From Escherichia coli (GTDB lineage Bacteria; Pseudomonadota; Gammaproteobacteria; Enterobacterales; Enterobacteriaceae), in the NCBI RefSeq assembly GCF_024298765.1, contig NZ_CP101210.1: a stretch of 64,000 nucleotides of DNA; one strand, 5' to 3'. Positions 3,108-57,729 of this stretch are shown here, piece by piece. The notes under the pieces are model-generated. The model did not search any database. It was not told the DNA's origin and saw nothing but the letters and a program-made list of their open reading frames with translations. Every line of letters starts with the position of its first letter. Positions within the stretch are counted from its first letter, which is position 1. A program made the translations under genes and the position numbers.

Positions 3108-4607
3108 ATGAGCATCTTGTACGAAGAGCGTCTTGATGGCGCTTTACCCGATGTCGACCGCACATCGGTACTGATGGCACTGCGTGAGCATGTCCCTGGA
3201 CTTGAGATCCTGCATACCGATGAGGAGATCATTCCTTACGAGTGTGACGGGTTGAGCGCGTATCGCACGCGTCCATTACTGGTTGTTTTGCCAAAGCAGA
3301 TGGAACAGGTGACGGCGATTCTGGCTGTCTGCCACCGCCTGCGTGTACCGGTCGTGACCCGTGGTGCAGGCACCGGGCTTTCTGGTGGCGCGCTGCCTCT
3401 GGAAAAAGGTGTGTTGTTGGTGATGGCGCGCTTTAAAGAGATCCTCGACATTAACCCCGTTGGTCGCCGCGCGCGCGTGCAGCCGGGCGTGCGTAACCTG
3501 GCGATCTCCCAGGCCGTTGCGCCGCATAATCTCTATTACGCGCCGGATCCTTCCTCACAAATCGCCTGTTCAATTGGCGGCAATGTGGCGGAAAATGCCG
3601 GTGGCGTTCACTGCCTGAAATATGGTCTGACCGTACAGAACCTGCTGAAAATTGAAGTGCAAACGCTGGACGGCGAGGCGCTGACGCTGGGATCGGATGC
3701 GCTGGATTCGCCTGGTTTTGACCTGCTGGCGCTGTTCACCGGATCGGAAGGTATGCTCGGCGTGACCACCGAAGTGACGGTAAAACTGCTGCCGAAGCCG
3801 CCCGTGGCGCGGGTTCTGTTAGCCAGCTTTGACTCGGTAGAAAAAGCCGGACTTGCGGTTGGTGACATCATCGCCAATGGCATTATCCCCGGCGGGCTGG
3901 AGATGATGGATAACCTGTCGATTCGCGCGGCGGAAGATTTTATTCATGCCGGTTATCCCGTCGATGCCGAAGCGATTTTGTTATGCGAACTGGACGGCGT
4001 GGAGTCTGACGTACAGGAAGACTGCGAGCGAGTTAACGACATCTTGTTGAACGCGGGTGCGACTGACGTCCGTCTGGCACAGGACGAAGCAGAGCGAGTA
4101 CGTTTCTGGGCCGGTCGCAAAAATGCGTTCCCGGCGGTAGGACGTATCTCCCCGGATTACTACTGCATGGATGGCACCATCCCGCGCCGCGCCCTGCCTG
4201 GCGTACTGGAAGGCATTGCCCGTTTATCGCAGCAATATGATTTACGCGTTGCCAACGTCTTTCATGCCGGAGACGGCAACATGCACCCGTTAATCCTTTT
4301 CGATGCCAACGAACCCGGTGAATTTGCCCGCGCGGAAGAACTGGGCGGGAAGATCCTCGAACTCTGCGTTGAAGTTGGCGGCAGCATCAGTGGGGAACAT
4401 GGCATCGGGCGCGAAAAAATCAATCAAATGTGCGCCCAGTTCAACAGCGATGAAATCACGACCTTCCATGCGGTCAAGGCGGCGTTTGACCCCGATGGTT
4501 TGCTGAACCCAGGAAAAAACATTCCCACGCTACACCGCTGTGCTGAATTTGGTGCCATGCATGTGCATCACGGTCATTTACCTTTTCCTGAACTGGAGCG
4601 TTTCTGA
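3108..4607 (+). CDS. glcD: Glycolate oxidase FAD-linked subunit
   Basis: 499-aa ORF MSILYEERLDGALPDVDRTS...; FAD-binding oxidase signature; first gene of glc operon. Confidence 0.95.
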   Translation: MSILYEERLDGALPDVDRTSVLMALREHVPGLEILHTDEEIIPYECDGLSAYRTRPLLVVLPKQMEQVTAILAVCHRLRVPVVTRGAGTGLSGGALPLEKGVLLVMARFKEILDINPVGRRARVQPGVRNLAISQAVAPHNLYYAPDPSSQIACSIGGNVAENAGGVHCLKYGLTVQNLLKIEVQTLDGEALTLGSDALDSPGFDLLALFTGSEGMLGVTTEVTVKLLPKPPVARVLLASFDSVEKAGLAVGDIIANGIIPGGLEMMDNLSIRAAEDFIHAGYPVDAEAILLCELDGVESDVQEDCERVNDILLNAGATDVRLAQDEAERVRFWAGRKNAFPAVGRISPDYYCMDGTIPRRALPGVLEGIARLSQQYDLRVANVFHAGDGNMHPLILFDANEPGEFARAEELGGKILELCVEVGGSISGEHGIGREKINQMCAQFNSDEITTFHAVKAAFDPDGLLNPGKNIPTLHRCAEFGAMHVHHGHLPFPELERF

Positions 4608-22583: not shown

Positions 22584-23806
22584 TGGCACTGTTTTACTAT
22601 CAGGCGCTGGAGCGTAATGGTCGCAAAACCAAAGGCATGATTGAGGCGGATTCCGCGCGTCATGCCCGTCAATTGTTGCGTGGTAAAGACCTCATTCCCG
22701 TGCACATTGAAGCCCGGATGAATGCATCGGCAGGGGGAATGTTGCAGCGTCGGCGGCACGCACATCGTCGCGTGGCGGCGGCAGATCTTGCGCTGTTCAC
22801 TCGTCAACTGGCAACGCTGGTGCAGGCAGCAATGCCGCTGGAAACCTGCTTACAGGCGGTCAGTGAGCAAAGCGAAAAACTGCATGTAAAAAGCCTCGGA
22901 ATGGCGCTGCGCAGCCGGATTCAGGAAGGTTATACCCTGTCGGACAGCCTGCGCGAACATCCCCGCGTCTTTGACTCCCTGTTTTGTTCGATGGTCGCTG
23001 CCGGAGAAAAATCCGGACATCTCGACGTGGTGCTCAATCGCCTGGCGGATTACACCGAACAGCGGCAGCGTCTGAAATCACGCCTGCTGCAGGCCATGCT
23101 CTACCCGCTGGTACTGCTGGTGGTGGCAACGGGCGTGGTCACTATTTTGCTGACGGCAGTAGTGCCGAAAATTATCGAACAGTTTGATCATCTCGGACAC
23201 GCGCTGCCCGCCTCCACCCGAATGCTCATCGCCATGAGCGACACGTTACAGACCAGCGGCGTGTACTGGCTGGCGGGTTTGCTGGGGCTTCTGGTGCTGG
23301 GGCAACGGCTACTCAAAAATCCTGCGATGCGCCTGCGCTGGGATAAAACCTTGCTGCGTTTGCCCGTGACGGGGCGTGTTGCGCGCGGGCTGAATACGGC
23401 GCGTTTTTCCCGCACGTTAAGCATCCTCACCGCCAGCAGTGTTCCGCTACTGGAAGGCATTCAGACCGCTGCCGCCGTGTCGGCAAATCGCTATGTCGAA
23501 CAACAACTGCTGCTGGCGGCAGATCGCGTCCGCGAAGGAAGCAGTCTGCGCGCCGCGCTGGCGGAGTTGCGGCTGTTCCCGCCAATGATGCTGTACATGA
23601 TCGCTTCCGGCGAACAGAGCGGCGAACTGGAAACCATGCTTGAGCAAGCCGCAGTTAACCAGGAACGAGAATTTGATACCCAGGTGGGGCTGGCGTTGGG
23701 GCTGTTTGAGCCTGCGCTGGTGGTGATGATGGCGGGCGTGGTGCTGTTTATTGTCATCGCCATCCTCGAGCCGATGCTGCAACTGAATAATATGGTTGGA
23801 ATGTAA
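22583..23806 (+). CDS. gspF: Type II secretion inner-membrane platform protein
   Basis: 407 aa, GspF-type repeat domains; overlaps gspE stop. Confidence 0.9.
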   Translation: MALFYYQALERNGRKTKGMIEADSARHARQLLRGKDLIPVHIEARMNASAGGMLQRRRHAHRRVAAADLALFTRQLATLVQAAMPLETCLQAVSEQSEKLHVKSLGMALRSRIQEGYTLSDSLREHPRVFDSLFCSMVAAGEKSGHLDVVLNRLADYTEQRQRLKSRLLQAMLYPLVLLVVATGVVTILLTAVVPKIIEQFDHLGHALPASTRMLIAMSDTLQTSGVYWLAGLLGLLVLGQRLLKNPAMRLRWDKTLLRLPVTGRVARGLNTARFSRTLSILTASSVPLLEGIQTAAAVSANRYVEQQLLLAADRVREGSSLRAALAELRLFPPMMLYMIASGEQSGELETMLEQAAVNQEREFDTQVGLALGLFEPALVVMMAGVVLFIVIAILEPMLQLNNMVGM

Positions 23807-23822
23807 TTTACGGAGTTATCAC

Positions 23823-24278
23823 ATGAATTCGTTATCCCGCACACAAAAACCACGGGCAGGTTTTACCCTGCTGGAAGTGATGGTGGTGATTGTTATTCTT
23901 GGCGTCCTGGCAAGTCTGGTGGTGCCTAACCTGTTGGGCAACAAAGAGAAAGCGGATCGGCAAAAAGCCATCAGCGATATCGTGGCGCTGGAGAATGCGC
24001 TGGATATGTACCGACTGGATAACGGGCGTTATCCGACCACAGAACAGGGGCTTGAGGCGCTGATCCAGCAACCGGCCAATATGGCGGATTCCCGTAACTA
24101 CCGTACCGGTGGATACATTAAACGACTGCCAAAAGATCCGTGGGGCAATGATTATCAGTATCTCAGTCCGGGTGAAAAAGGACTGTTTGATGTTTACACC
24201 CTGGGGGCGGATGGTCAGGAAAACGGGGAAGGCGCTGGCGCAGATATCGGTAACTGGAATTTGCAGGAGTTTCAGTAA
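23823..24278 (+). CDS. gspG: Major pseudopilin
   Basis: Prepilin leader and processing site in MNSLSRTQKPRAGFTLLEVMVVIVILGVLASL; GGAG SD before ATG 23823. Confidence 0.9.
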   Translation: MNSLSRTQKPRAGFTLLEVMVVIVILGVLASLVVPNLLGNKEKADRQKAISDIVALENALDMYRLDNGRYPTTEQGLEALIQQPANMADSRNYRTGGYIKRLPKDPWGNDYQYLSPGEKGLFDVYTLGADGQENGEGAGADIGNWNLQEFQ

Positions 24279-24281
24279 GCA

Positions 24282-24845
24282 GTGCCTGAACGCGGATTCA
24301 CTCTTCTGGAAATCATGCTGGTGATTTTCCTTATCGGCCTTGCCAGTGCGGGCGTGGTACAGACGTTTGCGACCGATTCTGAATCGCCCGCGAAAAAAGC
24401 GGCGCAGGATTTTCTGACTCGCTTTGCGCAGTTTAAAGACAGGGCAGTGATCGAAGGGCAGACACTCGGTGTACTAATCGACCCGCCGGGATACCAGTTT
24501 ATGCAGCGTCGTCAGGGGCAGTGGTTGCCCGTTTCTGCGACCCGGTTATCGGCACAGGTTACGGTGCCGAAACAGGTGCAGATGCTGTTACAACCCGGAA
24601 GTGATATCTGGCAGAAGGAATATGCGCTGGAGCTGCAGCGTCGCCGCCTGACGCTGCACGATATTGAACTGGAGCTGCAAAAAGAGGCGAAAAAGAAGAC
24701 ACCGCAGATCCGTTTTTCGCCTTTTGAACCCGCCACGCCGTTTACGCTGCGCTTCTACTCGGCGGCGCAAAACGCATGTTGGGCGGTAAAGCTGGCGCAC
24801 AATGGCGTGTTATCCCTCAATCAATGTGATGAGAGGATGCCATGA
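24282..24845 (+). CDS. gspH: Minor pseudopilin
   Basis: GFTLLEIMLVIFLIGL prepilin N-terminus; GTG start. Confidence 0.8.
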   Translation: MPERGFTLLEIMLVIFLIGLASAGVVQTFATDSESPAKKAAQDFLTRFAQFKDRAVIEGQTLGVLIDPPGYQFMQRRQGQWLPVSATRLSAQVTVPKQVQMLLQPGSDIWQKEYALELQRRRLTLHDIELELQKEAKKKTPQIRFSPFEPATPFTLRFYSAAQNACWAVKLAHNGVLSLNQCDERMP

Positions 24846-25213
24846 AGCGCGGATTTACCTTGCTGGAAGTGATGCTCGCGCTGGCGATTTTTGCGTTGGC
24901 CGCCATGGCGGTGTTACAGATTGCCAGCGGTGCGCTGAGTAATCAGCAGATTCTTGAGGAGAAAACGGTAGCGGGCTGGGTAGCTGAAAACCAGACCGCG
25001 CTGCTTTACCTGATGACCCGTGAACAACGAGCGGTCAGGCACCAGGGCGAGAGTGATATGGCAGGAAGCCGCTGGTACTGGCGAACCACACCGCTGAGTA
25101 CAGGCAACGCGCTGCTCCAGGCGGTGGATATTGAAGTCAGCCTTCACGAAGACTTTTCGCCGGTGATTCAGTCACGACGCGCCTGGTTTAGCGCCGTGGG
25201 AGGCCAACAGTGA
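24842..25213 (+). CDS. gspI: Minor pseudopilin
   Basis: MKRGFTLLEVMLALAIFALA prepilin N-terminus; overlaps gspH stop. Confidence 0.8.
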   Translation: MKRGFTLLEVMLALAIFALAAMAVLQIASGALSNQQILEEKTVAGWVAENQTALLYLMTREQRAVRHQGESDMAGSRWYWRTTPLSTGNALLQAVDIEVSLHEDFSPVIQSRRAWFSAVGGQQ

Positions 25214-25815
25214 GAAGGACTCGCGCTGGTTTCACGTTACTGGAAATACTGGTGGCGATAGCCATTTTTGCCTCGCTGGCACTGATGGCGCAGCAGGTGA
25301 CTAACGGCGTCGCACGCGTGAATAGCGCCGTCGCCGATCACGATCAAAAACTAAACCTCATGCAGCAAACGATGAGTTTTCTGACCCACGATCTGACCCA
25401 AATAATGCCGCGTCCGGTAAGAAGCGATCAGGGCCAGCGTGAACCAGCGTTACTGGCTGGCCCTGGCGTGCTGGCGTCTGAGAGTGGAGGAATGCGTTTT
25501 GTGCGCGGCGGTGTGGTTAACCCGTTGATGCGTCTGCCACGCAGCAATCTGCTCACCGTCGGTTACCGCATTCATGACGGCTATCTCGAACGGTTAGCCT
25601 GGCCGCTGACCGACGCAGCAGGCAGCGTGAAGCCGACAATGCAAAAGTTGATTCCGGCGGATTCGCTCCGCTTGCAGTTCTACGACGGCACGCGCTGGCA
25701 GGAGAGCTGGTCGTCAGTACAGGCGATCCCTGTGGCAGTGCGCATGACCCTGCATTCGCCGCAATGGGGCGAGATTGAACGCATCTGGTTGTTACGCGGG
25801 CCGCAATTATCATGA
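25210..25815 (+). CDS. gspJ: Minor pseudopilin
   Basis: RAGFTLLEILVAIAIFASLA prepilin N-terminus; GTG start overlapping gspI stop. Confidence 0.8.
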   Translation: MRRTRAGFTLLEILVAIAIFASLALMAQQVTNGVARVNSAVADHDQKLNLMQQTMSFLTHDLTQIMPRPVRSDQGQREPALLAGPGVLASESGGMRFVRGGVVNPLMRLPRSNLLTVGYRIHDGYLERLAWPLTDAAGSVKPTMQKLIPADSLRLQFYDGTRWQESWSSVQAIPVAVRMTLHSPQWGEIERIWLLRGPQLS

Positions 25816-41615: not shown

Positions 41616-41809
41616 CCGACGCCATTCATGGCCATATCAATGATTTTCTGGTGCGTACCGGGTTGAGAGGCGGTGTAAGTGAACTGTAGTTGCCATGTTT
41701 TACGGCAATGAGAGCAGAGATAGCGCTGATGTCCGGCAGTGCTTTTGCCGTTACGCACCACGCCTTCAGGAGCGGAGCAGGAAGGACATCTGATGGAAAT
41801 GGAAGCCAC
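41534..41809 (-). CDS. insA: IS1 InsA
   Basis: [43 protein letters not shown]... Confidence 0.9.
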
Positions 41810-42072
41810 GCAAGCACCTTAAAATCACCATCATACACTAAATCAGTAAGTTGGCACCATTACCTGACCAAGCTTCCTCTATTGCGGCACCTGATTGCAT
41901 CAATATCGAAAGTGATAAGATCCTCTCACTAGCAGGGCATGACAAGTGTAACTGCTGATTTGTTAGCCTGTTTTAAGTTTTTTAAGATCAATTATTTCTC
42001 ATTTTTTGACTTTATTGCTAGCCGTGAAAATGCAAAGCCTATAGGATACAAAAATTACAATTTGTAGGTTTT

Positions 42073-42579
42073 GTGAGTCATATGAAGGCAACCAATATAG
42101 ACCCTCAACTGCTTGAAAAAGCCACGAGTATCTTTGCTGAGTTGGGCTTACCTATTGAGCAGGCTATTAACGTCTTTTTAGCTAAATCCGTTCAAGCCAA
42201 AGGTTTTCCGTTTTCTGTTGCTCTTGAAAATGAAGTAGAGACACGGGAAGTTGCACAAACGCAACACAATATCAGCAATGCAGAGATAACCGAAGCTATC
42301 CAAGACTTGGTTGAACATGCTCTACCACTGAGTGAAATAGAAAACCTCACGCAGCTAACCTATTGTCGCAACATTTTTGGGTTGTCATTCCCCGTGCTCA
42401 AACTGGCTAAATCATCACGGCCAGAAGACATTCGCAGTGCAGCCAAAGATGCCAAAGAGCGAAACCGCTACTCCACCACTAAAGTGGCCCAGCGAGATGA
42501 AAAAACCTATGTTATTTGCACCCAATGGACCGACAGACATCGTTCTGCATTTTGCCGTTGGCAAGCCATCTTTAGCTAG
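42073..42579 (+). CDS. RelB/DinJ-like antitoxin-domain protein with C-terminal extension
   Basis: N-terminus MKATNIDPQLLEKATSIFAELGLPIEQAINVFLAKSVQAKGFPF resembles DinJ/RelB RHH antitoxins; ~90-aa C-terminal extension unrecognised; no adjacent toxin ORF. Confidence 0.5.
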   Translation: MSHMKATNIDPQLLEKATSIFAELGLPIEQAINVFLAKSVQAKGFPFSVALENEVETREVAQTQHNISNAEITEAIQDLVEHALPLSEIENLTQLTYCRNIFGLSFPVLKLAKSSRPEDIRSAAKDAKERNRYSTTKVAQRDEKTYVICTQWTDRHRSAFCRWQAIFS

Positions 42580-42645
42580 AACGCAAAATAATAACCAAAC
42601 AATACACTGATTTTTTAACGATTTAACTTCATTTAGGTAGTATCA

Positions 42646-44625
42646 ATGAACTTACAAGACAAAGAACAAAGCGCCAAACTCTCCAGTGCTATTTGGCGTA
42701 TGGCAGATGATTTATGGGGTGATTTCAAACACACCGATTTTGCGCGGATTATCCTGCCATTTTTGCTACTGCGTCGTATTGAATGCGTGTTAGAACCCAC
42801 CCGTGAGGAAGTTCGTAAGTTCTATCTGGCCGAAAAACAATCCGGCATAGACCTTGGTTTAGTGTTGCCAGAAATTGCGGGATTCGCCTTTTACAACACC
42901 AGTGAATATAGCCTAGAAACCTTAGGCGCGTCAGACACCGGCGACAACCTAGAACACTACATCAGCCAGTTCAGCAAAAACGTTCGTACCATCTTTGATG
43001 AGTTTAAATTTGGTCAAACCATAGAAGATCTGGAAAAAGCCAAGTTGCTGTATCGCATGGTAAACCATTTTGCCAACCTCGACTTGCATCCTGATGTAGT
43101 GTCTGACCGCGTATTATCAGATGCTTATGAAGAGCTGATTCTAAAGTTCGCCAGTTCGGTTAATGAAAAGGCCGGGGAATTTATGACCCCGCGTGATGCC
43201 GTGCGTCTTGCCACCAAACTGGTGCTGGCGGCGGATGAAGATATCTTTAGTGAAAAGGGTGTGATCCGCACCATCTATGACCCAACCTGTGGCACGGGCG
43301 GTTTCCTTTCCGATGCCATTAGCCAAATTGAAGAAATGGGCAGCAGCGCTAAAGTCGTGCCTTTTGGTCAAGAGCTCGACCCCGCGACCCATGCCATGGC
43401 GCTGACCAATATGATGATCCGCGGTTTTGATGCCAATAACATCAAGCAAGGCAACACCTTATCAGACGATCAGTTACGTGCCGACAAGTTTCACTACGGC
43501 CTTGCCAACCCGCCATTTGGCATTAAGTGGGAAAAAGCCAAGAAAGAAGTAGAACGTGAGCACAAACAGCTCAAATACGCCGGACGCTTTGGGCCAGGCC
43601 TGCCGAGTATTTCTGATGGTTCAATGCTGTTTTTACTGCACTTGGTATCAAAAATGGAAACGCCGGAAAATGGTGGTGGCCGAGTGGGTATAGTCCTTTC
43701 TGGCTCGCCACTGTTTAATGGCGATGCAGGCTCAGGCCCATCAGAAATCCGCCGTTGGCTGCTAGAACAAGACTTAGTCGAAGCGATTGTTGCCCTGCCA
43801 ACCGATATGTTCTTCAACACCGGCATTGGCACCTACATCTGGATTTTGACTAACCATAAAGAGCCAAGACGCAAGAATCAGGTGCAACTGATTAACTTGG
43901 CAGATATTTGGACTCCCATGCGTAAATCGCAAGGCGATAAGCGCAAGTACCTGAGTGATGAACAGATTGACGATATTGTCCGTGCGTACGATGGCTTTGA
44001 AGCCAGTGACAACTGTAAGATCTTCCAGACTACTGATTTTGCCTACCGTAAAGTCACCATTCAGCGTCCACTGCGTGCCAAACTAGATATTACCGCTGCG
44101 GGCATTGCTGCATTTGTGCAGCAAGATACGTTTAAAAAACTCAAACCAGAGCAACAAGCGGCATGGGTACAATACCTCACCGATAACCTTGGCCTTCAGC
44201 CTTATGAATGGGCACGTTTGGCGGTTAAGAAGAATAACAATAAGGGTGACTTTGGTAAGTGCTCAAAAGCACTGGCTACGGCCTTAACTGCGCACTTTGT
44301 AAAAATTGATCCGCAATTTGAGCCTGCACTGGATGAAAAAGGCCAAGTGATCGCCGACCCTAAACTCAAAGACACCGAAAGCATTCCTTTTGACCGCGAC
44401 GTTGAAGATTACTTCGCACAAGAGGTGCTGCCACATGTACCGGATGCCTTTATTGATCACTCAGTGCGTGATGAAAAAGACGGCGAAGTGGGCATTGTCG
44501 GTTATGAAATTAACTTTAACCGCTATTTCTACCAATACGTGCCACCACGCGAGTTGAGTGTGATTGATCGTGAGCTAAAAGCATGTGAAGCGCGCATTCA
44601 GGCTCTGCTGAATGAGGTGGCGTAA
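42646..44625 (+). CDS. hsdM: Type I restriction-modification system, DNA methyltransferase subunit
   Basis: AdoMet motif DPTCGTGGFL and catalytic NPPF (GLANPPFGIKWEK); 659 aa. Confidence 0.9.
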   Translation: MNLQDKEQSAKLSSAIWRMADDLWGDFKHTDFARIILPFLLLRRIECVLEPTREEVRKFYLAEKQSGIDLGLVLPEIAGFAFYNTSEYSLETLGASDTGDNLEHYISQFSKNVRTIFDEFKFGQTIEDLEKAKLLYRMVNHFANLDLHPDVVSDRVLSDAYEELILKFASSVNEKAGEFMTPRDAVRLATKLVLAADEDIFSEKGVIRTIYDPTCGTGGFLSDAISQIEEMGSSAKVVPFGQELDPATHAMALTNMMIRGFDANNIKQGNTLSDDQLRADKFHYGLANPPFGIKWEKAKKEVEREHKQLKYAGRFGPGLPSISDGSMLFLLHLVSKMETPENGGGRVGIVLSGSPLFNGDAGSGPSEIRRWLLEQDLVEAIVALPTDMFFNTGIGTYIWILTNHKEPRRKNQVQLINLADIWTPMRKSQGDKRKYLSDEQIDDIVRAYDGFEASDNCKIFQTTDFAYRKVTIQRPLRAKLDITAAGIAAFVQQDTFKKLKPEQQAAWVQYLTDNLGLQPYEWARLAVKKNNNKGDFGKCSKALATALTAHFVKIDPQFEPALDEKGQVIADPKLKDTESIPFDRDVEDYFAQEVLPHVPDAFIDHSVRDEKDGEVGIVGYEINFNRYFYQYVPPRELSVIDRELKACEARIQALLNEVA

Positions 44626-45911
44626 TGAATGCTGGCAACATAGTAGATGCTTTCGTATCTGACTCGAAATGGAACTCAGTACCAGCTAAACGTTTATTTA
44701 CGAGTAGCAAAGAAATCAATCAAGGAATGAAAGAATCTAATCGTCTTGCACTAACAATGAAAGGTGTCATAAACCGCTCGTTAGACGATTTACAAGGACT
44801 TCAATCTTCTGATTACTCTGTTTATCAGATTTTTGAAAAAGATGACTTAGTTTTTAAGCTCATAGATCTTGAAAATATAAAGACTAGCCGAGTGGGGATT
44901 GTGCATGAACGAGGAATAATGAGCCCTGCATACATCCGTGTTTCAGCGAGTTCAAATAGCATCTACCCAAGGTTCTATTACTGGTACTTTTTTGCTCTAT
45001 ACCTAACCAATATTTATAACAAACTGGGTGGAGGAGTTCGTCAGAACCTAACAGCTGGTGATCTTTTAGAAATACCTGTTCCACTGATTGATATTTCATT
45101 ACAGAAGCAGGTTAGCACATTCCTTGATCGCGAAACCCAGCGCATCGACAGTCTGATCGAGGAAAAGCAGACCTTTATTAAGCTGCTCAAAGAAAAACGC
45201 CAAGCACTGATCAGCCATGTGGTCACAAAGGGGCTCTATCCCAATGTGGAGATGCAGGACTCTGGCATCGAGTGGATTGGGCAAGTGCCGAAGCATTGGG
45301 AAGTCAAAAAGATAAAGCATATTTGCTCCAACTTTATGTATGGAACCTCTCAAGACTGTAACCAGTCTGATGTTGGCTATCCTGTTCTCAGGATACCAAA
45401 CATCAAGAGTACCAATGTTGATTTTGAAGATCTCAAATATGCAAATATCAGTGATGTTGATGCTTTAACTTATCTTTTATCAAGAGGCGACATTTTAGTC
45501 ATCAGAACTAACGGTAACCCTAATCTGGTCGGCCAAAGCGCGCTTTTTGATTCAAATGGGCAGTATTTATTTGCGTCGTACCTAATAAAGTTAACACCAA
45601 AGCAAGGAGTGGATACTAGCTTCTTAGTGGAAGCGATGAACTCACTATCTGTTCGTCAAGCATTAACATTTCAGTCAAGAACATCGGTAGGTAACTACAA
45701 CCTGAGCATTCCTTCACTAGCTAATACAAGTATTGCTATCCCACCAATTGATGAGCAAAAGACAATAACGAATTACTTGAGTGCAGCAACGATAAACATT
45801 GATTTACTGATTCAAGAGACTGATAAATCGATTGATCTTCTAAAAGAACACCGCACATCGCTGATCAACGCGGCTGTCACAGGAAAAATAGACGTCAGGG
45901 AGGCGGTGTAA
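44625..45911 (+). CDS. hsdS: Type I restriction-modification system, specificity subunit
   Basis: 428 aa with two target-recognition domains separated by conserved repeats (LIEEKQTFIKLLKEKRQALISHVVTKGL / LLIQETDKSIDLLKEHRTSLINAAVTGKIDV); start overlaps hsdM stop (TAATG). Confidence 0.85.
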   Translation: MNAGNIVDAFVSDSKWNSVPAKRLFTSSKEINQGMKESNRLALTMKGVINRSLDDLQGLQSSDYSVYQIFEKDDLVFKLIDLENIKTSRVGIVHERGIMSPAYIRVSASSNSIYPRFYYWYFFALYLTNIYNKLGGGVRQNLTAGDLLEIPVPLIDISLQKQVSTFLDRETQRIDSLIEEKQTFIKLLKEKRQALISHVVTKGLYPNVEMQDSGIEWIGQVPKHWEVKKIKHICSNFMYGTSQDCNQSDVGYPVLRIPNIKSTNVDFEDLKYANISDVDALTYLLSRGDILVIRTNGNPNLVGQSALFDSNGQYLFASYLIKLTPKQGVDTSFLVEAMNSLSVRQALTFQSRTSVGNYNLSIPSLANTSIAIPPIDEQKTITNYLSAATINIDLLIQETDKSIDLLKEHRTSLINAAVTGKIDVREAV

Positions 45912-48900
45912 TGGCTGCACATCATGAAGTGCATTTTGAACAATATATTACCGAGCAGTTGGTGAACAATGGCTGGAAAGAAGGCCATTCCTGCCACTAT
46001 GACCAGCAACGCGCCCTTTACCCGCAAGATGTCATGGATTGGGTAAAGGCCACCCAGCCAGATGCCTGGCACAAACTGAATAAACTGCATGGTGTGAATG
46101 CCGAGCAGGTGCTGTTGGAGCGTTTGGAAAAAGCCCTCTCTTCCCACAAAGCTGGCAGTAAAACAGGTGGCACCATTAATGTGCTGCGTAAAGGCTTTAC
46201 CATTGCAGGTTGCGGCACGATTGCCATGGGCCAACGCAAACCCGAAGATGCGCGCAATGAAGAGCGTATAGCCCGTTATGAGCACAACATTTTGCGCGTG
46301 GTGCGCCAACTGAAATATTGCCCGACTCGCGAGTGGGAAATTGACTTGGTGTTCTTTATCAACGGTCTACCCGTTGCCACCGCCGAGCTAAAAACCGATT
46401 TTACCCAGTCGCTAGAATCGGCGATTGCGCAGTACAAAGAGGATCGTCTGCCCGTTGACCCAAAAACCAAGCGTAAAGAGCCGCTGTTAACCTTTAAACG
46501 CGGTGCAGTGGTACATTTTGCCATGTCTGATACAGAAATCGCCATGGCGACCAAACTGGCGGGAGAAAATACCTATTTTCTGCCCTTCAATAAAGGCCAT
46601 GATGGTTCTACCTCTGATTTGCCCGTACACATCAACTTGCCGGGTGAAGATGGAGAGTATCCGGTCAGCTATTTTTGGCAAGAAATTGCCCAAAAAGATA
46701 ATTGGCTACGCATTTTCTACAGCTTTGTGTATGTCGAAACCAAAGAGGTTGCCGATAGCAATGGCAAGGTTGAGCGTAAGGAAACACAGATTTTTCCGCG
46801 TTATCATCAGTTAGCCGCAGTCAACAAGATGATTGATGATGCCCGCCAGAACGGCGCAGGCATGCAGTATCTTTGTGAGCACAGCGCCGGTTCGGGAAAA
46901 ACCTCTACCATAGCCTGGACGGCCCATGATTTGATTCGTTTACGCAGCACCGATGGTAAAGCGGTCTTTAAATCAGTGATCATTGTGACCGACCGCACCG
47001 TGCTGGATTCGCAGTTGCAAGATGCGGTGCAACAGCTGGATCATCAATATGGGGTGATTAAGGCGATTGATCGCGAAAAGAGCAGCGAGTCGAAATCAAA
47101 ACAGCTGACTGAAGCGCTATTGACTGGCACGCCGATCATTGTAGTGACGATTCAAACCTTCCCATATGCGTTAGAAGCGATTCTGACCAATCAATCTTTG
47201 GCACAAAGTAACTTTGCGGTGATCATCGATGAAGCACACACCTCGCAAACAGGCTCTACAGCCAAAGGGTTACGCGCAGCGCTTACTCTAAACCTTAGCC
47301 CTCAAGAGTTGGAGCAAATGAGCATTGAGGACATTCTTACTAAGGTGCAAGAAGCGCGCGCCATGCCCAAGAACGTTTCGCACTTTGCTTTTACGGCAAC
47401 ACCCAAGCACAGCACCAAGATGTTGTTTGGCCGCCCGAAAGACCCTAACCAACCAGTGTCAGATGACAATCTTCCTGAATCGTTCCACCTCTACACCCAA
47501 CGTCAGGCCATTGATGAGGGTTTTATTCTTGATGTGCTGGAGAATTACACCCACTACGATACAGCCTACAAAATTGGTGAGAACAATCTGGATGAGAAGC
47601 GCGTAGACAGCAAACAAGCTCGCCGCGCGTTGGCGCGCTGGATGTCACTGCACCCAACCACGGTCAGCCAAAAAGTCGAATTTATTATTAAGCACTTCAA
47701 GGCCAATATCGCTCACCTACTGGAAGGTGAAGCCAAAGCCATGGTGGTCACATCGGGCAGGCCACAGGCGGTGAAATACAAGCTTGCTTTTGATAAATAC
47801 ATTAAAAAGCATGGTATTGAAGGTATCCAAGCCTTGGTTGCCTTCTCGGGCAAAGTCCCCGGCAAAGATTTGGGTGATGAAGACAGCCAAGACCCGCTAG
47901 AAATTGATTTCGATAAAGAGTACACCGAGTACAACTTAAACCCAGACACGCACGGGGCTGACCTGCGCCATGAGTTTGAGAAAACCGAATATCGCGTCAT
48001 GTTAGTCGCCAACAAGTTCCAAACGGGCTTTAATCAACCAAAACTGGTTGCCATGTATTTGGATAAGAAAATATCCGATGTAGAAGCGGTGCAAACGCTG
48101 TCTCGCCTAAACCGCACCTATCCAGGCAAAGACACAACCTTCGTGATTGATTTTGTTAACGATCCACAAACCATTCTCAATGCGTTCAAAAAGTACGACA
48201 AAGGCGCGCAGCTTAATGAAGTGCAAGATGTGAACGTCATCTATGACATCAAAGATATTTTGGATGAACAGAACATATACAACCATCAAGATTTAGAGTT
48301 GTTTAAGCAAGCGCGTGGTAAATCGATTCTCGGCCAATCACCTGACAAAAAGCCACACGCGCACAAGAAACTGCTAGCTGCCACACAACGCCCTACCGAT
48401 GTGTTCAACGTTAAGCTCAAAGAGCTGGTTGATGCTGCAAACCATTGGGATCAGCAATACAACAAAGCGCACCTTGCGGGTGATGAAAAAGCGGCGAACT
48501 ACGCAGAATCTCAGCGCAGTGATTTCACCAAGCAGCGCGAAGCACTAATGCGTTTTAAGTCAGATTTAGCTCGATTTGTGAAGCACTATAGCTATATGGC
48601 GCAATTGATTGAGTTTGGTGATCCTGAACTGGAAAACTTTGCCGCGTTTGCTCATTTGCTATCACGTCGATTGAAAGGGGTAACACCAGAAAACATCGAT
48701 CTCAGTGCACTGGTACTAGAAAAATTCAAAATCAAATACGACAAAGAGCCGCTTCCAGAAGCGTTTAATCAGGTACTTGAACCTATCCGCCCCAACTATA
48801 ACGACCCTGCGGATCGTGAACAGGCATTTCTTGCCGATATCATTCGCCGCCTAAACGAACTGTTTGGCGATGTCGGCGACGAACCCGGTCGCCGAAACTT

Positions 48901-49147
48901 TGCCAACGGTACTATTACGCGTGTCACCCAAAATCCAATTGTGGTTGAGCAGATAGAAAAGCACGACAAGTCGATTGCCCTCAAAGGCGACTTGCCGCAA
49001 GCGGTGAAGCAAGCCGTTGTGCAGGCTCTGCTGAAAGAAGGTGATATAGCCCGAACGCTACTCAAAGACCCACAAGTTATGGCAAGTTATGTTGAGTTGA
49101 TTTTTGACATGATGAAGCAAGGTGCAGAACAGGCGGCGGTGAAATAA
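45911..49147 (+). CDS. hsdR: Type I restriction-modification system, restriction/helicase subunit
   Basis: 1078 aa; Walker A SAGSGKTST, DEAH box (IIDEAHTSQ); start overlaps hsdS stop (TAATG). Confidence 0.9.
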   Translation: MAAHHEVHFEQYITEQLVNNGWKEGHSCHYDQQRALYPQDVMDWVKATQPDAWHKLNKLHGVNAEQVLLERLEKALSSHKAGSKTGGTINVLRKGFTIAGCGTIAMGQRKPEDARNEERIARYEHNILRVVRQLKYCPTREWEIDLVFFINGLPVATAELKTDFTQSLESAIAQYKEDRLPVDPKTKRKEPLLTFKRGAVVHFAMSDTEIAMATKLAGENTYFLPFNKGHDGSTSDLPVHINLPGEDGEYPVSYFWQEIAQKDNWLRIFYSFVYVETKEVADSNGKVERKETQIFPRYHQLAAVNKMIDDARQNGAGMQYLCEHSAGSGKTSTIAWTAHDLIRLRSTDGKAVFKSVIIVTDRTVLDSQLQDAVQQLDHQYGVIKAIDREKSSESKSKQLTEALLTGTPIIVVTIQTFPYALEAILTNQSLAQSNFAVIIDEAHTSQTGSTAKGLRAALTLNLSPQELEQMSIEDILTKVQEARAMPKNVSHFAFTATPKHSTKMLFGRPKDPNQPVSDDNLPESFHLYTQRQAIDEGFILDVLENYTHYDTAYKIGENNLDEKRVDSKQARRALARWMSLHPTTVSQKVEFIIKHFKANIAHLLEGEAKAMVVTSGRPQAVKYKLAFDKYIKKHGIEGIQALVAFSGKVPGKDLGDEDSQDPLEIDFDKEYTEYNLNPDTHGADLRHEFEKTEYRVMLVANKFQTGFNQPKLVAMYLDKKISDVEAVQTLSRLNRTYPGKDTTFVIDFVNDPQTILNAFKKYDKGAQLNEVQDVNVIYDIKDILDEQNIYNHQDLELFKQARGKSILGQSPDKKPHAHKKLLAATQRPTDVFNVKLKELVDAANHWDQQYNKAHLAGDEKAANYAESQRSDFTKQREALMRFKSDLARFVKHYSYMAQLIEFGDPELENFAAFAHLLSRRLKGVTPENIDLSALVLEKFKIKYDKEPLPEAFNQVLEPIRPNYNDPADREQAFLADIIRRLNELFGDVGDEPGRRNFANGTITRVTQNPIVVEQIEKHDKSIALKGDLPQAVKQAVVQALLKEGDIARTLLKDPQVMASYVELIFDMMKQGAEQAAVK

Positions 49148-49701
49148 TGAATACTGCGTTTCGGGTTTTACTTACGTTCAATGCAACATCACTACTAGTG
49201 ATTATCTTTGCGGTACAAAAAGGGTACTCACTCGGATATTTCTTTGGTGGTTTCGCTTGCTTCGATTGGATAGCAGCACTTCCGAACGCAGTATCATATT
49301 TACTCTATTTTCTTATCCCTGTTTTATCGACTGGATTGAGTATTTGGCTGAGTAAGTATTTGGGTAAAGACGATTTTAAGGCGGGTGAAGTAGCGAGTAT
49401 TGAGCATGCCAATAACAGCTTCCTACCAAGTTATTTGGGTTACTTTTTCGTGGCGTTGAGCATTGGTAACTGGGAGACATTGTGGTTTGTTTATGGCGTT
49501 TTGTTTGTTTTTACTCTCTTATCGCAAGCACTCTACTTTAACCCATTGTTTTTACTGTTTGGTTATGAGTTTTATAACATTACAACCAAAAACGGAACGG
49601 CCATTTTCCTTATTAGCCGAGAGCGCTACAAGAAGCCAGATGACATCGAAATATCATTGGCTTATCGAATCAATAATTACACATTTATCGAGCGAGGATA
49701 A
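49147..49701 (+). CDS. Small polytopic membrane protein (about 4 predicted TM helices), candidate defense component (KwaA-like architecture)
   Basis: 184 aa with hydrophobic segments LLVIIFAV, WIAALPNAVSYLLYFLIPVLSTGLSIWL, YFFVALSIGNW, LWFVYGVLFVFTLLSQALYF; ATG overlaps hsdR stop (TAATG); AT-rich. Confidence 0.55.
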   Translation: MNTAFRVLLTFNATSLLVIIFAVQKGYSLGYFFGGFACFDWIAALPNAVSYLLYFLIPVLSTGLSIWLSKYLGKDDFKAGEVASIEHANNSFLPSYLGYFFVALSIGNWETLWFVYGVLFVFTLLSQALYFNPLFLLFGYEFYNITTKNGTAIFLISRERYKKPDDIEISLAYRINNYTFIERG

Positions 49702-50543
49702 TGATGGACCATGTACTGGCACATATAAAAACTAGAGCAAAAAAACGCATTTTCAAATTGGTTTCTGATCAATCTCTTTTTGATACCGTCACAATCGACT
49801 TAAATGCCTGTATTCCATACAATCCAGACCATAACCTTGACGAAGACTCATGGTTTAAAATTGAAGACTTTAGTCAAAAAGAGTTTTGTATTGAACTGCT
49901 AAAAAAAGACTATGATTCAAAAGACTACGATGACTTAACCAAAGATAACTTCGCCAAGATCGCCTACTTATTTGCAATTCAAGGTAATGATTTTTACTTT
50001 CAAAAAATCACTCCAAGCCTATTCGTAAAACGCAAAACGCTTGTTTTTGGTGAAGCCGCAGAAATTGAGAAGAGCCAAACACGTTTAGTAATAAACGCCT
50101 TACCTGATGCAGTGTACTTCAAAGTGGCCGATACCTTGATATTCAAAAATCTGGCAACGATCTCGAGCATTTTTAAAGGTATCGATGAGTTGTACAAGGA
50201 AGCAACAAAAGAAGAAGTTGAGCAGTTTTTAGATGCACAGTTTATAGAGTTGGGTAATGACTACAACGTAGATAGCGTCTCAAAACCTAATAGAAAACGT
50301 ATTGGCCTTGCTATGGCAACACTTGATGCGATGTCTGCTGACGATAAAGCTAACATGCTTGATTATATCGACGGTTACTGCGGTGAACAGAAGCTGAAAT
50401 TCGATAAAGAAAATCAGAAGTTTGAAATATCTAATGACGATGAGTTGAAGTTACTGCTTTATGGCATTGAACAACGCTTCTATACGACCCCGTTTGGCAA
50501 AGAAAAAAGGCTCGCTAACTCTGTAACCGCTATGGATAAATAA
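49701..50543 (+). CDS. Soluble acidic protein, partner of the membrane protein (KwaB-like position)
   Basis: 280-aa ORF, no TM segment, no recognised catalytic motif; ATG overlaps preceding stop (TAATG), GAGG SD. Confidence 0.55.
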   Translation: MMDHVLAHIKTRAKKRIFKLVSDQSLFDTVTIDLNACIPYNPDHNLDEDSWFKIEDFSQKEFCIELLKKDYDSKDYDDLTKDNFAKIAYLFAIQGNDFYFQKITPSLFVKRKTLVFGEAAEIEKSQTRLVINALPDAVYFKVADTLIFKNLATISSIFKGIDELYKEATKEEVEQFLDAQFIELGNDYNVDSVSKPNRKRIGLAMATLDAMSADDKANMLDYIDGYCGEQKLKFDKENQKFEISNDDELKLLLYGIEQRFYTTPFGKEKRLANSVTAMDK

Positions 50544-50578
50544 TAGCCCATTATCAGTAACATATGAAGGTTGATTCA

Positions 50579-51613
50579 ATGGCCGATAACATCCCACAAG
50601 CTCCTCAAGGTGAGTTTGTTCTTTTCACCAGTGCTGATGGTCAAACCCGCGTTGAGTGTCGTTTTGAGTCTGACACCTTGTGGCTTTCTCAGGCTGCAAT
50701 GGCAGAGCTTTATCAAGTTAGCTCTCAAGCAATCACCCAACACGTAAAAGCTGTCTATTCTGAAGAAGAGCTTGAGCAAATTTCAACTTGTAAGGATTAC
50801 TTACAAGTTCAACTGGAAGGTGGCAGAGAAGTAAAGCGAAGCATTCGTCACTACAGTCTTCCGGTTATTCTTGCAGTAGGATACCGAGTTCGCTCAACAC
50901 GTGGCACCCAGTTCCGCCAATGGGCAACCAGAATGTTGCAAGAATACCTAATCAAAGGATTCGTCATGGATGACGAGCGCCTGAAAAATCCGCCCATTGG
51001 CCATTCTGCTGTGCCAGATTACTTTGATGAAATGCTGGAACGCATTCGTGATATCCGAGCTAGTGAGCGTCGCGTTTATCTGCGAGTCAAAGAAATCTTT
51101 ACCATGGCTGCTGATTACGAGCCATCTAACCAAGAGACCAACCGCTTCTTCCAAACCATTCAGAATAAGCTGCATTATGCTTGTACGCATATGACGGCTG
51201 CTGAGCTTATCGCCAGCCGTGTGGATGCCAGTAAGCCGGATATGGGCTTAACCAGCTATAAAGGCGATGAAGTGCGCAAGACAGACGTTACTGTTGCCAA
51301 GAACTATTTGCGTGAAGACGAAATCAAAGAGCTTAATCGCATCGTCAATATGTGGCTCGACTTTGCTGAAGACCAAGCACTGCGTCGCAAGCAGGTATTT
51401 TTACAGGACTGGGCCGATAAGCTTGACCAGTTCTTGAGTTTTAACGATAGAGATGTATTAAACGGTGCAGGAAAAATCTCCAAGAAAGACGCTGATGACA
51501 AAGCGAAATTGGAGTTTGACCGCTTTGCCCAGCAGCGCCGTCGTTTAAAAGAAGCCGAAGGCGCACGGGCCAATATCGCAGCCCTCAAGGCCATACTAAA
51601 AAAAGATAAATAG
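50579..51613 (+). CDS. rhuM: RhuM-family virulence-associated protein
   Basis: ...RHYSLPVILAVGYRVRSTRGTQFRQWATRMLQEYLIKGFVMDDERL... matches the conserved RhuM core as I recall it. Confidence 0.7.
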   Translation: MADNIPQAPQGEFVLFTSADGQTRVECRFESDTLWLSQAAMAELYQVSSQAITQHVKAVYSEEELEQISTCKDYLQVQLEGGREVKRSIRHYSLPVILAVGYRVRSTRGTQFRQWATRMLQEYLIKGFVMDDERLKNPPIGHSAVPDYFDEMLERIRDIRASERRVYLRVKEIFTMAADYEPSNQETNRFFQTIQNKLHYACTHMTAAELIASRVDASKPDMGLTSYKGDEVRKTDVTVAKNYLREDEIKELNRIVNMWLDFAEDQALRRKQVFLQDWADKLDQFLSFNDRDVLNGAGKISKKDADDKAKLEFDRFAQQRRRLKEAEGARANIAALKAILKKDK

Positions 51614-51670
51614 CCGATATAGTACAGCCCTGATCTCTAATGAGTTGAGGGCTGTGTTGTAAGATCATAA

Positions 51671-52057
51671 CTATAAAGGATTATCCATCTTAAAATCGTC
51701 GATATCGCCTGTCATTTTGAATAGATTGGTGTCATTCCAACGGCACAGTTGTCTAACCCGCATTAGATTTGAGTTGGCTCTGCGGATTATTGAGAAAGCA
51801 TCTTCAACAGCAGTAATCACCGATTTTTCCCAATCTTGTGCTCGGGTAAAGGTGCTTTGTGAATAGCGATAATTGCCCTCACGGGGGAGGTAATGGCTGA
51901 TCACCTGGTATTTGTCAGAATTCTTTTTAGGTTTAAACTCGTTGTAAACCCAGAAAATTTCGAGTTTTTTGTTTCTTTGCCTTACACGACAACCAAAATG
52001 ACCTGGGTAGCCTTCAGAGTTTTTACCTCTATGTGCAACGTTGTTCAGCCAGAACAA
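51671..52057 (-). CDS. Hypothetical protein (possible gene fragment, TTG start)
   Basis: 128-aa ORF with non-ATG start; no homolog recognised; upstream in-frame sequence closed by a stop. Confidence 0.25.
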   Translation of the reverse strand: MFWLNNVAHRGKNSEGYPGHFGCRVRQRNKKLEIFWVYNEFKPKKNSDKYQVISHYLPREGNYRYSQSTFTRAQDWEKSVITAVEDAFSIIRRANSNLMRVRQLCRWNDTNLFKMTGDIDDFKMDNPL

Positions 52058-52399
52058 GTCTGCAATTTTTTGTGCTATGTAGAAGTAGCGGAGCTGTTCT
52101 ATTTCGGTTGATTTATGGGTGTAGTGTAGATATTGCTCTGATATGGTTAAGGAAAAAGCATTGCGTCGTCTTGATTAACATTTGTGCTATTGACAATAAA
52201 GGTTTCCCAAATATTAATTTGTGTTTCTAGTCCTTTAAATGATTTTGAGAAGGCTTCTATGTACTCAGATTGCGGTTGATTTCCCCCATTTAGTGCTGCA
52301 CCAAATGTAGCTATCTATTGTTCTAAAAATGAATGATTTTTGGTCATTACATAATCCTCTGTGTGGTTGATACTGCGTATTTTCATGAAAGGAGATCAC

Positions 52400-54986: not shown

Positions 54987-57729
<2,743 letters not shown>

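Follow-up and report, generated by a model that had tools for sequence, protein, structure and literature searches.

We analysed a 64,000-nucleotide (nt) stretch of Escherichia coli DNA (contig NZ_CP101210.1 of assembly GCF_024298765.1; hereafter the window), and in particular two adjacent genes at 49147-50543 that follow a type I restriction-modification (RM) operon and very probably form a divergent Kiwa anti-phage system, the two components of which are KwaA and KwaB. A sequence-only reading of the window had called two open reading frames (ORFs) of 184 and 280 amino acids (aa) at this place, and their coordinates proved exact, both on the + strand. The operon and the gene that follows it are arranged in this way:

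42646..44625, + strand: hsdM, type I RM methyltransferase (PADLOC MTase_I, 1.9e-243; RefSeq annotation)
44625..45911, + strand: hsdS, type I specificity subunit (PADLOC Specificity_I, 4e-97), with a TAATG overlap at either end
45911..49147, + strand: hsdR, type I restriction subunit (PADLOC REase_I, 3e-30; RefSeq 'type I restriction endonuclease subunit R')
49147..49701, + strand: kwaA-like gene, 184 aa, predicted membrane sensor subunit of Kiwa
49701..50543, + strand: kwaB-like gene, 280 aa, soluble product with two domains, predicted DNA-binding effector of Kiwa
50564..51613, + strand: rhuM-family gene (PADLOC candidate PDC-S05, 8e-167), outside Kiwa, a phage-defence candidate

The first five genes form a tightly packed block, hsdM-hsdS-hsdR-kwaA-kwaB, with hsdM in first place and kwaA and kwaB in the last two, in which four TAATG stop/start overlaps follow one another, at hsdM/hsdS (44625), hsdS/hsdR (45911), hsdR/kwaA-like (49147) and kwaA-like/kwaB-like (49701). 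The stop codon of hsdR is shared with the start of the kwaA-like gene (sequence 49143-49149), in such a way that both starts of the pair show the TAATG overlap that had been noticed by eye, and these 1-nt overlaps suggest that kwaAB are co-translated with hsdR. HsdM, HsdS and HsdR are all present and intact, as judged from the PADLOC matches and from the lengths of HsdM and HsdR, which equal those of a Vibrio cholerae copy described below. The rhuM gene starts 20-35 nt 3' of the kwaB-like gene, and the whole lies in an island at a tRNA-Leu gene (leuX-type) with copies of the insertion sequences (IS) IS1 and IS3 on either side. The location first ascribed to the pair, between a type I RM system and a RhuM gene within an IS-flanked island, was borne out by the PADLOC matches (MTase_I, Specificity_I, REase_I and PDC-S05) and by these two elements. 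A scan of 41800-52300 showed no notable promoter- or terminator-like site at the hsdR/kwaA junction; it gave fewer sites than shuffled sequence and is uninformative. The GC content is 35-39% over kwaA and kwaB (49200-50400) versus 45-50% in the flanking hsdR and rhuM, a dip that fits a cassette brought in from elsewhere.

Both ORFs are real genes and not chance ORFs, because their DNA is conserved in 76 genomes, they have more than 1300 homologues, and their gene order recurs in several phyla. The 1.4-kb kwaAB stretch was found with at least 99% identity in 76 of 5426 complete E. coli genomes, and variants with 60-80% DNA identity in a further 33; the kwaAB genes of the window thus show a patchy distribution, being present in about 2% of complete E. 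coli genomes. At the protein level, 1334 homologues were detected for the 280-aa protein (534 cluster representatives at 50% identity) and 1879 for the 184-aa protein. Gene order was followed in a locus scan with one genome per species and 12 closer sequences as query, from which 80 loci of 206 relatives were kept, belonging to Gamma- and Betaproteobacteria, Desulfobacterota, Bacteroidota, Firmicutes and Actinobacteria. In these species-level loci the kwaA-like gene was always immediately upstream of the kwaB-like gene where both ends were present, and the two were separated by 6 nt or less, or overlapped, in 73 of 76 loci, the overlap being 1 nt in the window.

The 184-aa protein was matched along almost its entire length by the PADLOC KwaA model PDLC00216 (9.3e-16, residues 2-182 of 184), one of nine PADLOC KwaA models that recognised it, and PF28043:KwaA appears, marked as weak, among the precomputed annotations of its homologues. 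Its AlphaFold2 model (predicted local distance difference test score, pLDDT, of 90.8) has four transmembrane helices (residues 2-25, 47-71, 89-105 and 109-126), a number on which the hydrophobic segments agree and which matches the roughly four hydrophobic helices seen in the sequence-only reading. The model also has six strands (73-75, 82-87, 141-147, 152-157, 172-174 and 179-182), supplied by the intracellular loop and the C-terminus, which build a cytosolic beta-barrel. This predicted architecture is the one described for KwaA, in which four transmembrane helices are combined with a six-strand cytosolic barrel contributed by the first intracellular loop (ICL1) and the C-terminus (PMC11785009). 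When the model was compared with the Protein Data Bank (PDB) by Foldseek, the top four matches were KwaA chains (9mrx_A, 9mrg), with template modelling (TM) scores of 0.44-0.59 and 15-18% identity; there was no match other than KwaA, the next one having E>1.

The KwaA-like proteins are unusually conserved across phyla in the family alignment, with the near-invariant motifs FRLLLTFNATSLL, NNSFLPSYLGYFFVALS, SQALYFNPLFLLFGY and RINNYTFIE, and the first, third and fourth transmembrane helices and the barrel strands are near-invariant as well. The periplasmic loop between the first and second helices (around residues 27-46 in the window) is the sole hypervariable, indel-rich part of the family, a pattern from which one may speculate that a conserved core carries a variable outward-facing surface. 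In most loci KwaA is more conserved than its KwaB partner.

The 280-aa protein was matched by the PADLOC KwaB model PDLC00222 (7.1e-14, residues 33-276) and by two more KwaB ('DUF4868 domain') models. It is soluble and acidic, as had been noted, with an isoelectric point (pI) of 5.0 and a grand average of hydropathy (GRAVY) of -0.42, and its acidity agrees with that of canonical KwaB (pI 4.6-4.7). Its close homologues have no precomputed Pfam domain, and PF16162 KwaB was found in 5 of 67 diverse relatives, the best at 9.7e-7. As for the fold, the top six PDB matches to its AlphaFold2 model (pLDDT 92.8) in Foldseek were all KwaB (9mtn, 9mrx and 9nyu; E from 7e-7 to 8e-6), with TM scores of 0.58-0.66, 10-12% identity, probability 1.00 and around 320 aligned columns, in agreement with the KwaB fold, which joins a Rossmann-like N-domain to a DUF4868 C-domain. 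The next match had E=0.15, and no other fold was found below E=0.1.

These data make it very probable that the pair is a Kiwa anti-phage system of a remote clade, occupying the last two cistrons of hsdM-hsdS-hsdR-kwaA-kwaB. The fold and family membership, the kwaA-then-kwaB order and the defence-island and RM context were observed here, and the anti-phage function would be that of canonical Kiwa by analogy. The structural comparison is decisive for this identity, because both folds match only KwaA and KwaB chains, and it is also supported by the full-length PADLOC KwaA and KwaB matches, by PF16162 in relatives, by the gene order and by the defence and RM context. The sequence-only reading had hesitated between a divergent Kiwa and an undescribed system; the PADLOC and Foldseek results strongly support the former and all but exclude the latter.

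Several results weigh against this assignment. Pfam-A gave no meaningful match for the 184-aa protein alone and, DUF4868/PF16162 KwaB included, no match at E<=10 for the 280-aa protein, and the NCBIfam KwaA equivalog NF041622, a model built on the canonical Kiwa clade, reached on the 184-aa protein only 25.4 bits, failing its cut-off of 100. Searches of the PDB sequences with phmmer for each protein and with family hidden Markov models (HMMs) found no KwaA or KwaB, whereas the canonical kwaA and kwaB of E. coli SMS-3-5, used as a control, readily matched KwaA and KwaB in the same sequences. The alignment by hhalign of the family of the 280-aa protein with 30 canonical KwaB sequences had a probability of 0.6%, the identity to solved KwaA and KwaB is only 10-18%, and the KwaB of the window, with 280 aa, is around 40 residues shorter than the canonical ones (315-327 aa). 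No published experimental test of the Kiwa clade of the window was found in the literature, and the trigger, the target and the sensitivity to Gam of this clade may differ from those of canonical Kiwa. The earlier remark that homology could not be confirmed by eye was well founded, as neither Pfam KwaB nor hhalign against canonical KwaB finds it; the profile search proposed then for DUF4868 was negative on the 280-aa protein with Pfam, and the PADLOC KwaA and KwaB models were positive. The pair is a distant branch of Kiwa, whose link to the studied clade runs through intermediate profiles and the fold.

We compared the pair with canonical Kiwa, that is, the systems of E. coli O55:H7, ECOR8, ECOR12 and ECOR49, for which structures (9mrg, 9mrx, 9mtn and 9nyu) and a mechanism are available (PMC11785009); five Kiwa systems, from ECOR8, ECOR12, ECOR49, D9 and Ralstonia, were tested in that work. 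Both are two-gene operons with kwaA before kwaB, in which KwaA combines four transmembrane helices with a six-strand cytosolic barrel and KwaB is an acidic two-domain protein of the same fold (TM score around 0.6). Both also lie in mobile elements or defence islands and are matched by the PADLOC Kiwa models. KwaA has 184 aa in the window and 195-200 aa in canonical systems. The pair of the window is part of a type I RM operon in which stop codons overlap the next start codons, whereas the canonical E. coli clade occupies a P4-satellite hotspot.

The clade of the window is already known as Kiwa, since DefenseFinder and PADLOC both have models that cover it and published tables list it (PMC12016545, PMC12409351). 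In the GItrmA island of Shewanella putrefaciens CN32, the DefenseFinder table lists RM_Type_I at 3523-3525, Kiwa at 3526-3527 and DarTG at 3528-3529 (PMC12016545). The CN32 homologue P0063, a KwaB-like protein around 84% identical to that of the window, was found in the context hsdR-hsdM-hsdS-KwaA(weak)-278 aa-DarT-Macro, in agreement with that table, so that the GItrmA 'Kiwa' (Sputcn32_3526-3527) belongs to the clade of the window and, as in the window, comes directly after a type I RM operon. The order in CN32 is hsdR-hsdM-hsdS-kwaA-kwaB-darT-darG, with an HsdR of a family unrelated to that of the window and DarTG downstream where the window has RhuM. Likewise, Vibrio proteins named 'ATP F0F1 synthase' have been labelled Kiwa-KwaB_2 by DefenseFinder (PMC12409351); 'ATP F0F1 synthase synthase' is a meaningless name propagated over the KwaB-like family in NCBI and UniRef. 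Most RefSeq records call both proteins 'hypothetical protein', and newer ones name the small protein 'KwaA family protein' and leave the large one hypothetical. The classification of defence systems is unchanged by the pair, an ordinary member of a known system type that current defence-finding tools already capture, but the two 'hypothetical' genes should be named kwaA and kwaB, both in the roughly 2% of complete E. coli genomes that carry them and in the many genomes of Vibrio, Shewanella, Aeromonas, Legionella and Bacteroidota that have them.

The relation of the pair to RM operons was studied in 82 loci, 75 of them informative, whose ORFs were labelled by means of iterated HMMs, the seeds of which were HsdR and HsdS proteins verified with NCBIfam. 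The position of the pair in the 75 loci was as follows:

directly after hsdS (hsdR-M-S-A-B): 25
directly after hsdR (M-S-R-A-B, the order of the window): 16
between hsdS and hsdR: 4
after hsdM: 1
directly before hsdR: 1
total with a co-oriented type I hsd gene directly adjoining: 47
hsd genes within four genes of the pair: 5
no hsd gene near the pair: 23

The description of the pair as fused to the RM operon is thus accurate, and it is the usual state for the clade (47 of 75 loci). The gap between the upstream gene and kwaA was of -5 to +6 nt in 34 of 44 loci. Loci without hsd genes occur, for example, in Legionella, in E. coli 042 and in several Vibrio and Pseudomonas. Clustering of the linked HsdR proteins gives 8 groups at 30% identity and 11 at 40%, and pairs that are at least 60% identical stand beside unrelated HsdR in 288 of 780 comparisons; for example, the KwaB of an Oceanospirillum locus (L010) is 83% identical to that of the window, while the hsdR of that locus shows no match to the HsdR of the window. 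The cassette has therefore moved repeatedly between unrelated type I operons.

As a control, the surroundings of seven canonical PF16162 KwaB were inspected. Those of E. coli, Rahnella and Proteus are in P4-like satellites and that of Aeromonas stands alone, and those of Steroidobacter, Halarcobacter and Rhodocyclaceae (four contigs) belong to a type I operon; the contigs that include both flanks show them between hsdS and hsdR. The idea that RM embedding is specific to the clade of the window was rejected, with three of the seven canonical KwaB also in type I operons; embedding is a wider habit of Kiwa. The regularity with which Kiwa is built into type I RM operons, quantified here, is apparently unreported. 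PrrC of EcoprrI is a defence protein whose gene is embedded in a type I operon. Embedding in RM operons is not mentioned in the Kiwa mechanism paper (PMC11785009), and defence genes inside type I operons are also represented by DarTG2 in the RRDM island of enteropathogenic E. coli (EPEC; PMC12255303) and by TgvAB in VPI-2 of V. cholerae (bioRxiv 10.1101/2024.04.04.588119). These three and the Kiwa of the window are alike in being autonomous modules within or appended to hsdMSR, probably co-transcribed with it and providing layered immunity. Their effectors differ, PrrC being an anticodon nuclease, DarTG2 an ADP-ribosyltransferase toxin-antitoxin, TgvAB a GmrSD-like type IV nuclease and Kiwa a membrane sensor with a non-nucleolytic DNA binder. 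With its repeated, translationally coupled insertion into unrelated type I operons, Kiwa joins PrrC, DarTG2 and TgvAB among the RM-embedded second-line defences.

In canonical Kiwa, a KwaA tetramer docks KwaB dimers at the membrane, conjugation is lowered and KwaB binds DNA without cleaving it, through residues R142, R167, K187, R233, N134 and D169 (PMC11785009). If the system of the window worked in the same way, a KwaA tetramer would tether KwaB dimers to the membrane, and the membrane disturbance produced by phage DNA ejection or by conjugation would be sensed and would activate the complex. KwaB would then bind the incoming DNA without cutting it, in such a way that replication forks would stall and late transcription would be blocked (steps drawn from PMC11785009). 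The operon structure further suggests that embedding in the RM operon would build up the defence in layers that are inherited and expressed together, in which restriction would hit unmodified DNA and Kiwa would act as a second layer against phages that escape restriction. The clade is so remote from the studied Kiwa that it can serve to test how much of the Kiwa mechanism is universal.

The tight linkage could also mean that both proteins belong to the type I enzyme as accessory subunits, serving as a membrane anchor at DNA entry sites or as a DNA clamp or roadblock that triggers cleavage by HsdR. Type I enzymes cut where translocation stalls, and such a role would fit the four consecutive TAATG overlaps that tie the pair to hsdMSR, the abutting hsd genes in 47 of 75 loci (the pair lying between hsdS and hsdR in 4 of them) and the short gap upstream of kwaA in 34 of 44. 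We nevertheless consider it unlikely, as 23 of the 75 loci lack hsd genes in their vicinity, the HsdR partners represent 8 or more lineages of less than 30% identity and the 288 of 780 comparisons mentioned above reveal a free swapping of RM hosts that makes specific contacts of the pair with Hsd subunits improbable; moreover, canonical Kiwa protects alone when cloned (PMC11785009). A role as guard of the RM system, like that of PrrC in EcoprrI, is highly unlikely for the pair, which would stay latent and fire when an Ocr/ArdA-type mimic disables Hsd, or would titrate such mimics. This would have precedents within type I operons in PrrC, DarTG2 (PMC12255303) and TgvAB (10.1101/2024.04.04.588119), and canonical KwaB is bound and inhibited by the DNA mimic Gam, with a partitioning of the inhibitor with RecBCD also reported (PMC11785009); however, the same cassette is found in unrelated RM backgrounds and without any RM, and the trigger of canonical Kiwa lies at the membrane and is not the loss of RM.

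An undescribed defence system, resembling Kiwa only superficially as a small membrane protein with a partner of around 300 aa, would explain the lack of Pfam matches on either protein, the lack of profile-profile signal against canonical KwaB and the 'hypothetical protein' that RefSeq mostly gives for both. Its chances are very slim in view of the full-length PADLOC matches to KwaA and KwaB, of models that match KwaA and KwaB exclusively and along the whole chain in the PDB, and of the transitive Pfam KwaB matches through relatives together with PF28043:KwaA on homologues. A housekeeping or other non-defence role is scarcely credible: it has in its favour only the legacy name 'ATP F0F1 synthase synthase' of many database entries, and against it there is no similarity to ATP synthase families in Pfam, NCBIfam or the PDB, and the pair has a patchy distribution, in around 2% of E. 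coli genomes, and is always in mobile or defence contexts. Within the assignment to Kiwa, it is doubtful that the embedding in RM operons is itself functional, with tethered KwaB holding DNA at entry as a roadblock or time-buyer, or sharing mimic inhibitors (Ocr, ArdA) with the RM enzyme, to give a more-than-additive protection; this idea is based on the adjacency to an hsd gene in 47 of 75 loci, on the variety of HsdR partners (at least 8 unrelated lineages), on the four gene orders and on the position of some canonical Kiwa between hsdS and hsdR. In any case, synergy between RM and Kiwa could be tested on the natural arrangement of this locus.

The surroundings of the pair were also compared with those of its counterpart in V. 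cholerae. Two further features of the window are concerned with its flanks:

42073..42579, + strand: RelB/DinJ-like N-terminal domain protein, 168 aa (RefSeq annotation), directly 5' of hsdM
55550-57073, - strand: group II intron reverse transcriptase/maturase ltrA, around 507 aa, inside an IS3-family element downstream of the defence block

The V. cholerae block consists of RelB-like, hsdM, hsdS, hsdR, kwaA, kwaB, rhuM and mobI genes, as around the pair of the window, with protein identities of 98-100% (98-99% for HsdM and HsdR) except for HsdS (67%) and MobI (86%), and it adjoins a tyrosine integrase at mnmE/trmE. We take this arrangement at mnmE/trmE to be typical of an IncC-mobilisable island. 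Also on the V. cholerae island (L007, 1-20558) are a DUF927 primase-like gene and the Tn7-like genes TniB/TniA. The island looks IncC-mobilisable and probably gave rise to the E. coli fragment; the copy in E. coli is a piece of such an element, bordered by IS, in the leuX island.

The RelB/DinJ-like gene has no adjacent toxin gene, and its 168-aa product had no PADLOC match. The protein is 88-98% conserved upstream of hsdM in three Vibrio loci (L007-L009), and the gene may be a regulator of the operon. Its identification as RptR was rejected, RptR being a 79-aa helix-turn-helix (HTH) protein (PMC12255303), whereas the gene of the window encodes 168 aa with a RelB/DinJ-like N-terminus.

As regards other defence genes, rhuM adjoins or lies inside Kiwa-bearing type I operons in loci L011, L075, L077 and L096. 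It is found in the same position as in the window in V. cholerae, other Vibrio, Aliiglaciecola and Dysgonomonas (44% identity), and also beside canonical Kiwa in Steroidobacter. In four hsdR-M-S-kwaA-kwaB loci, a reverse transcriptase-nitrilase gene (around 1070 aa; PADLOC RT_UG5-nitrilase, E=0) comes directly 3' of kwaB, making a stack of three systems, and in Shewanella-type loci DarT and DarG follow 3 nt after the kwaB stop, giving the stack RM-Kiwa-DarTG that is listed for the CN32 GItrmA island. Where RM is not adjacent, or on the other side of the pair, the neighbours include a defence-associated reverse transcriptase (DRT) UG5-nitrilase, TmtA, LmuB, mad3, a type II restriction endonuclease and DarTG; loci without RM are still defence islands. 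The neighbouring genes were located as follows:

RT_UG5-nitrilase gene: L012, 5450-8653; L033, 9507-12725; L041, 10487-13708; L047 (truncated)
DarT and DarG (Macro domain): L105, 9841-11533; L106, 8290-9982
TmtA, 1611 aa (PADLOC E=0), direct neighbour of the pair: L021, 8147-12982
mad3/LmuB-like ATPase, 1313 aa, direct neighbour of the pair: L073, 10842-14783
LmuB-like structural maintenance of chromosomes (SMC) ATPase, 985 aa, direct neighbour of the pair: L084, 6395-9352

Other E. coli genomes carry the module in further settings. E. coli SMS-3-5 (L001) also has a canonical Kiwa at 22690-25623, around 8 kb downstream of a window-type module in the same island, with kwaA intact and kwaB split by the IS4-like ISVsa5 into fragments of 220 and 121 aa; the divergent Kiwa of this strain is therefore intact and its canonical Kiwa inactivated. 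No second, canonical copy is present in the window. E. coli VREC0864 (L089) has at the same tRNA-Leu site a different hsdMSR, which is followed by another variant of the pair, with kwaB annotated in two pieces. In E. coli 042 (L088, 8836-12131), a variant with 60-80% DNA identity lies in a type VI secretion system (T6SS) island, with no hsd gene annotated in the stretch shown, and is followed by a phosphoadenosine phosphosulfate (PAPS)-reductase-like gene with a weak PADLOC BrxP match and by an IbrB-like gene.

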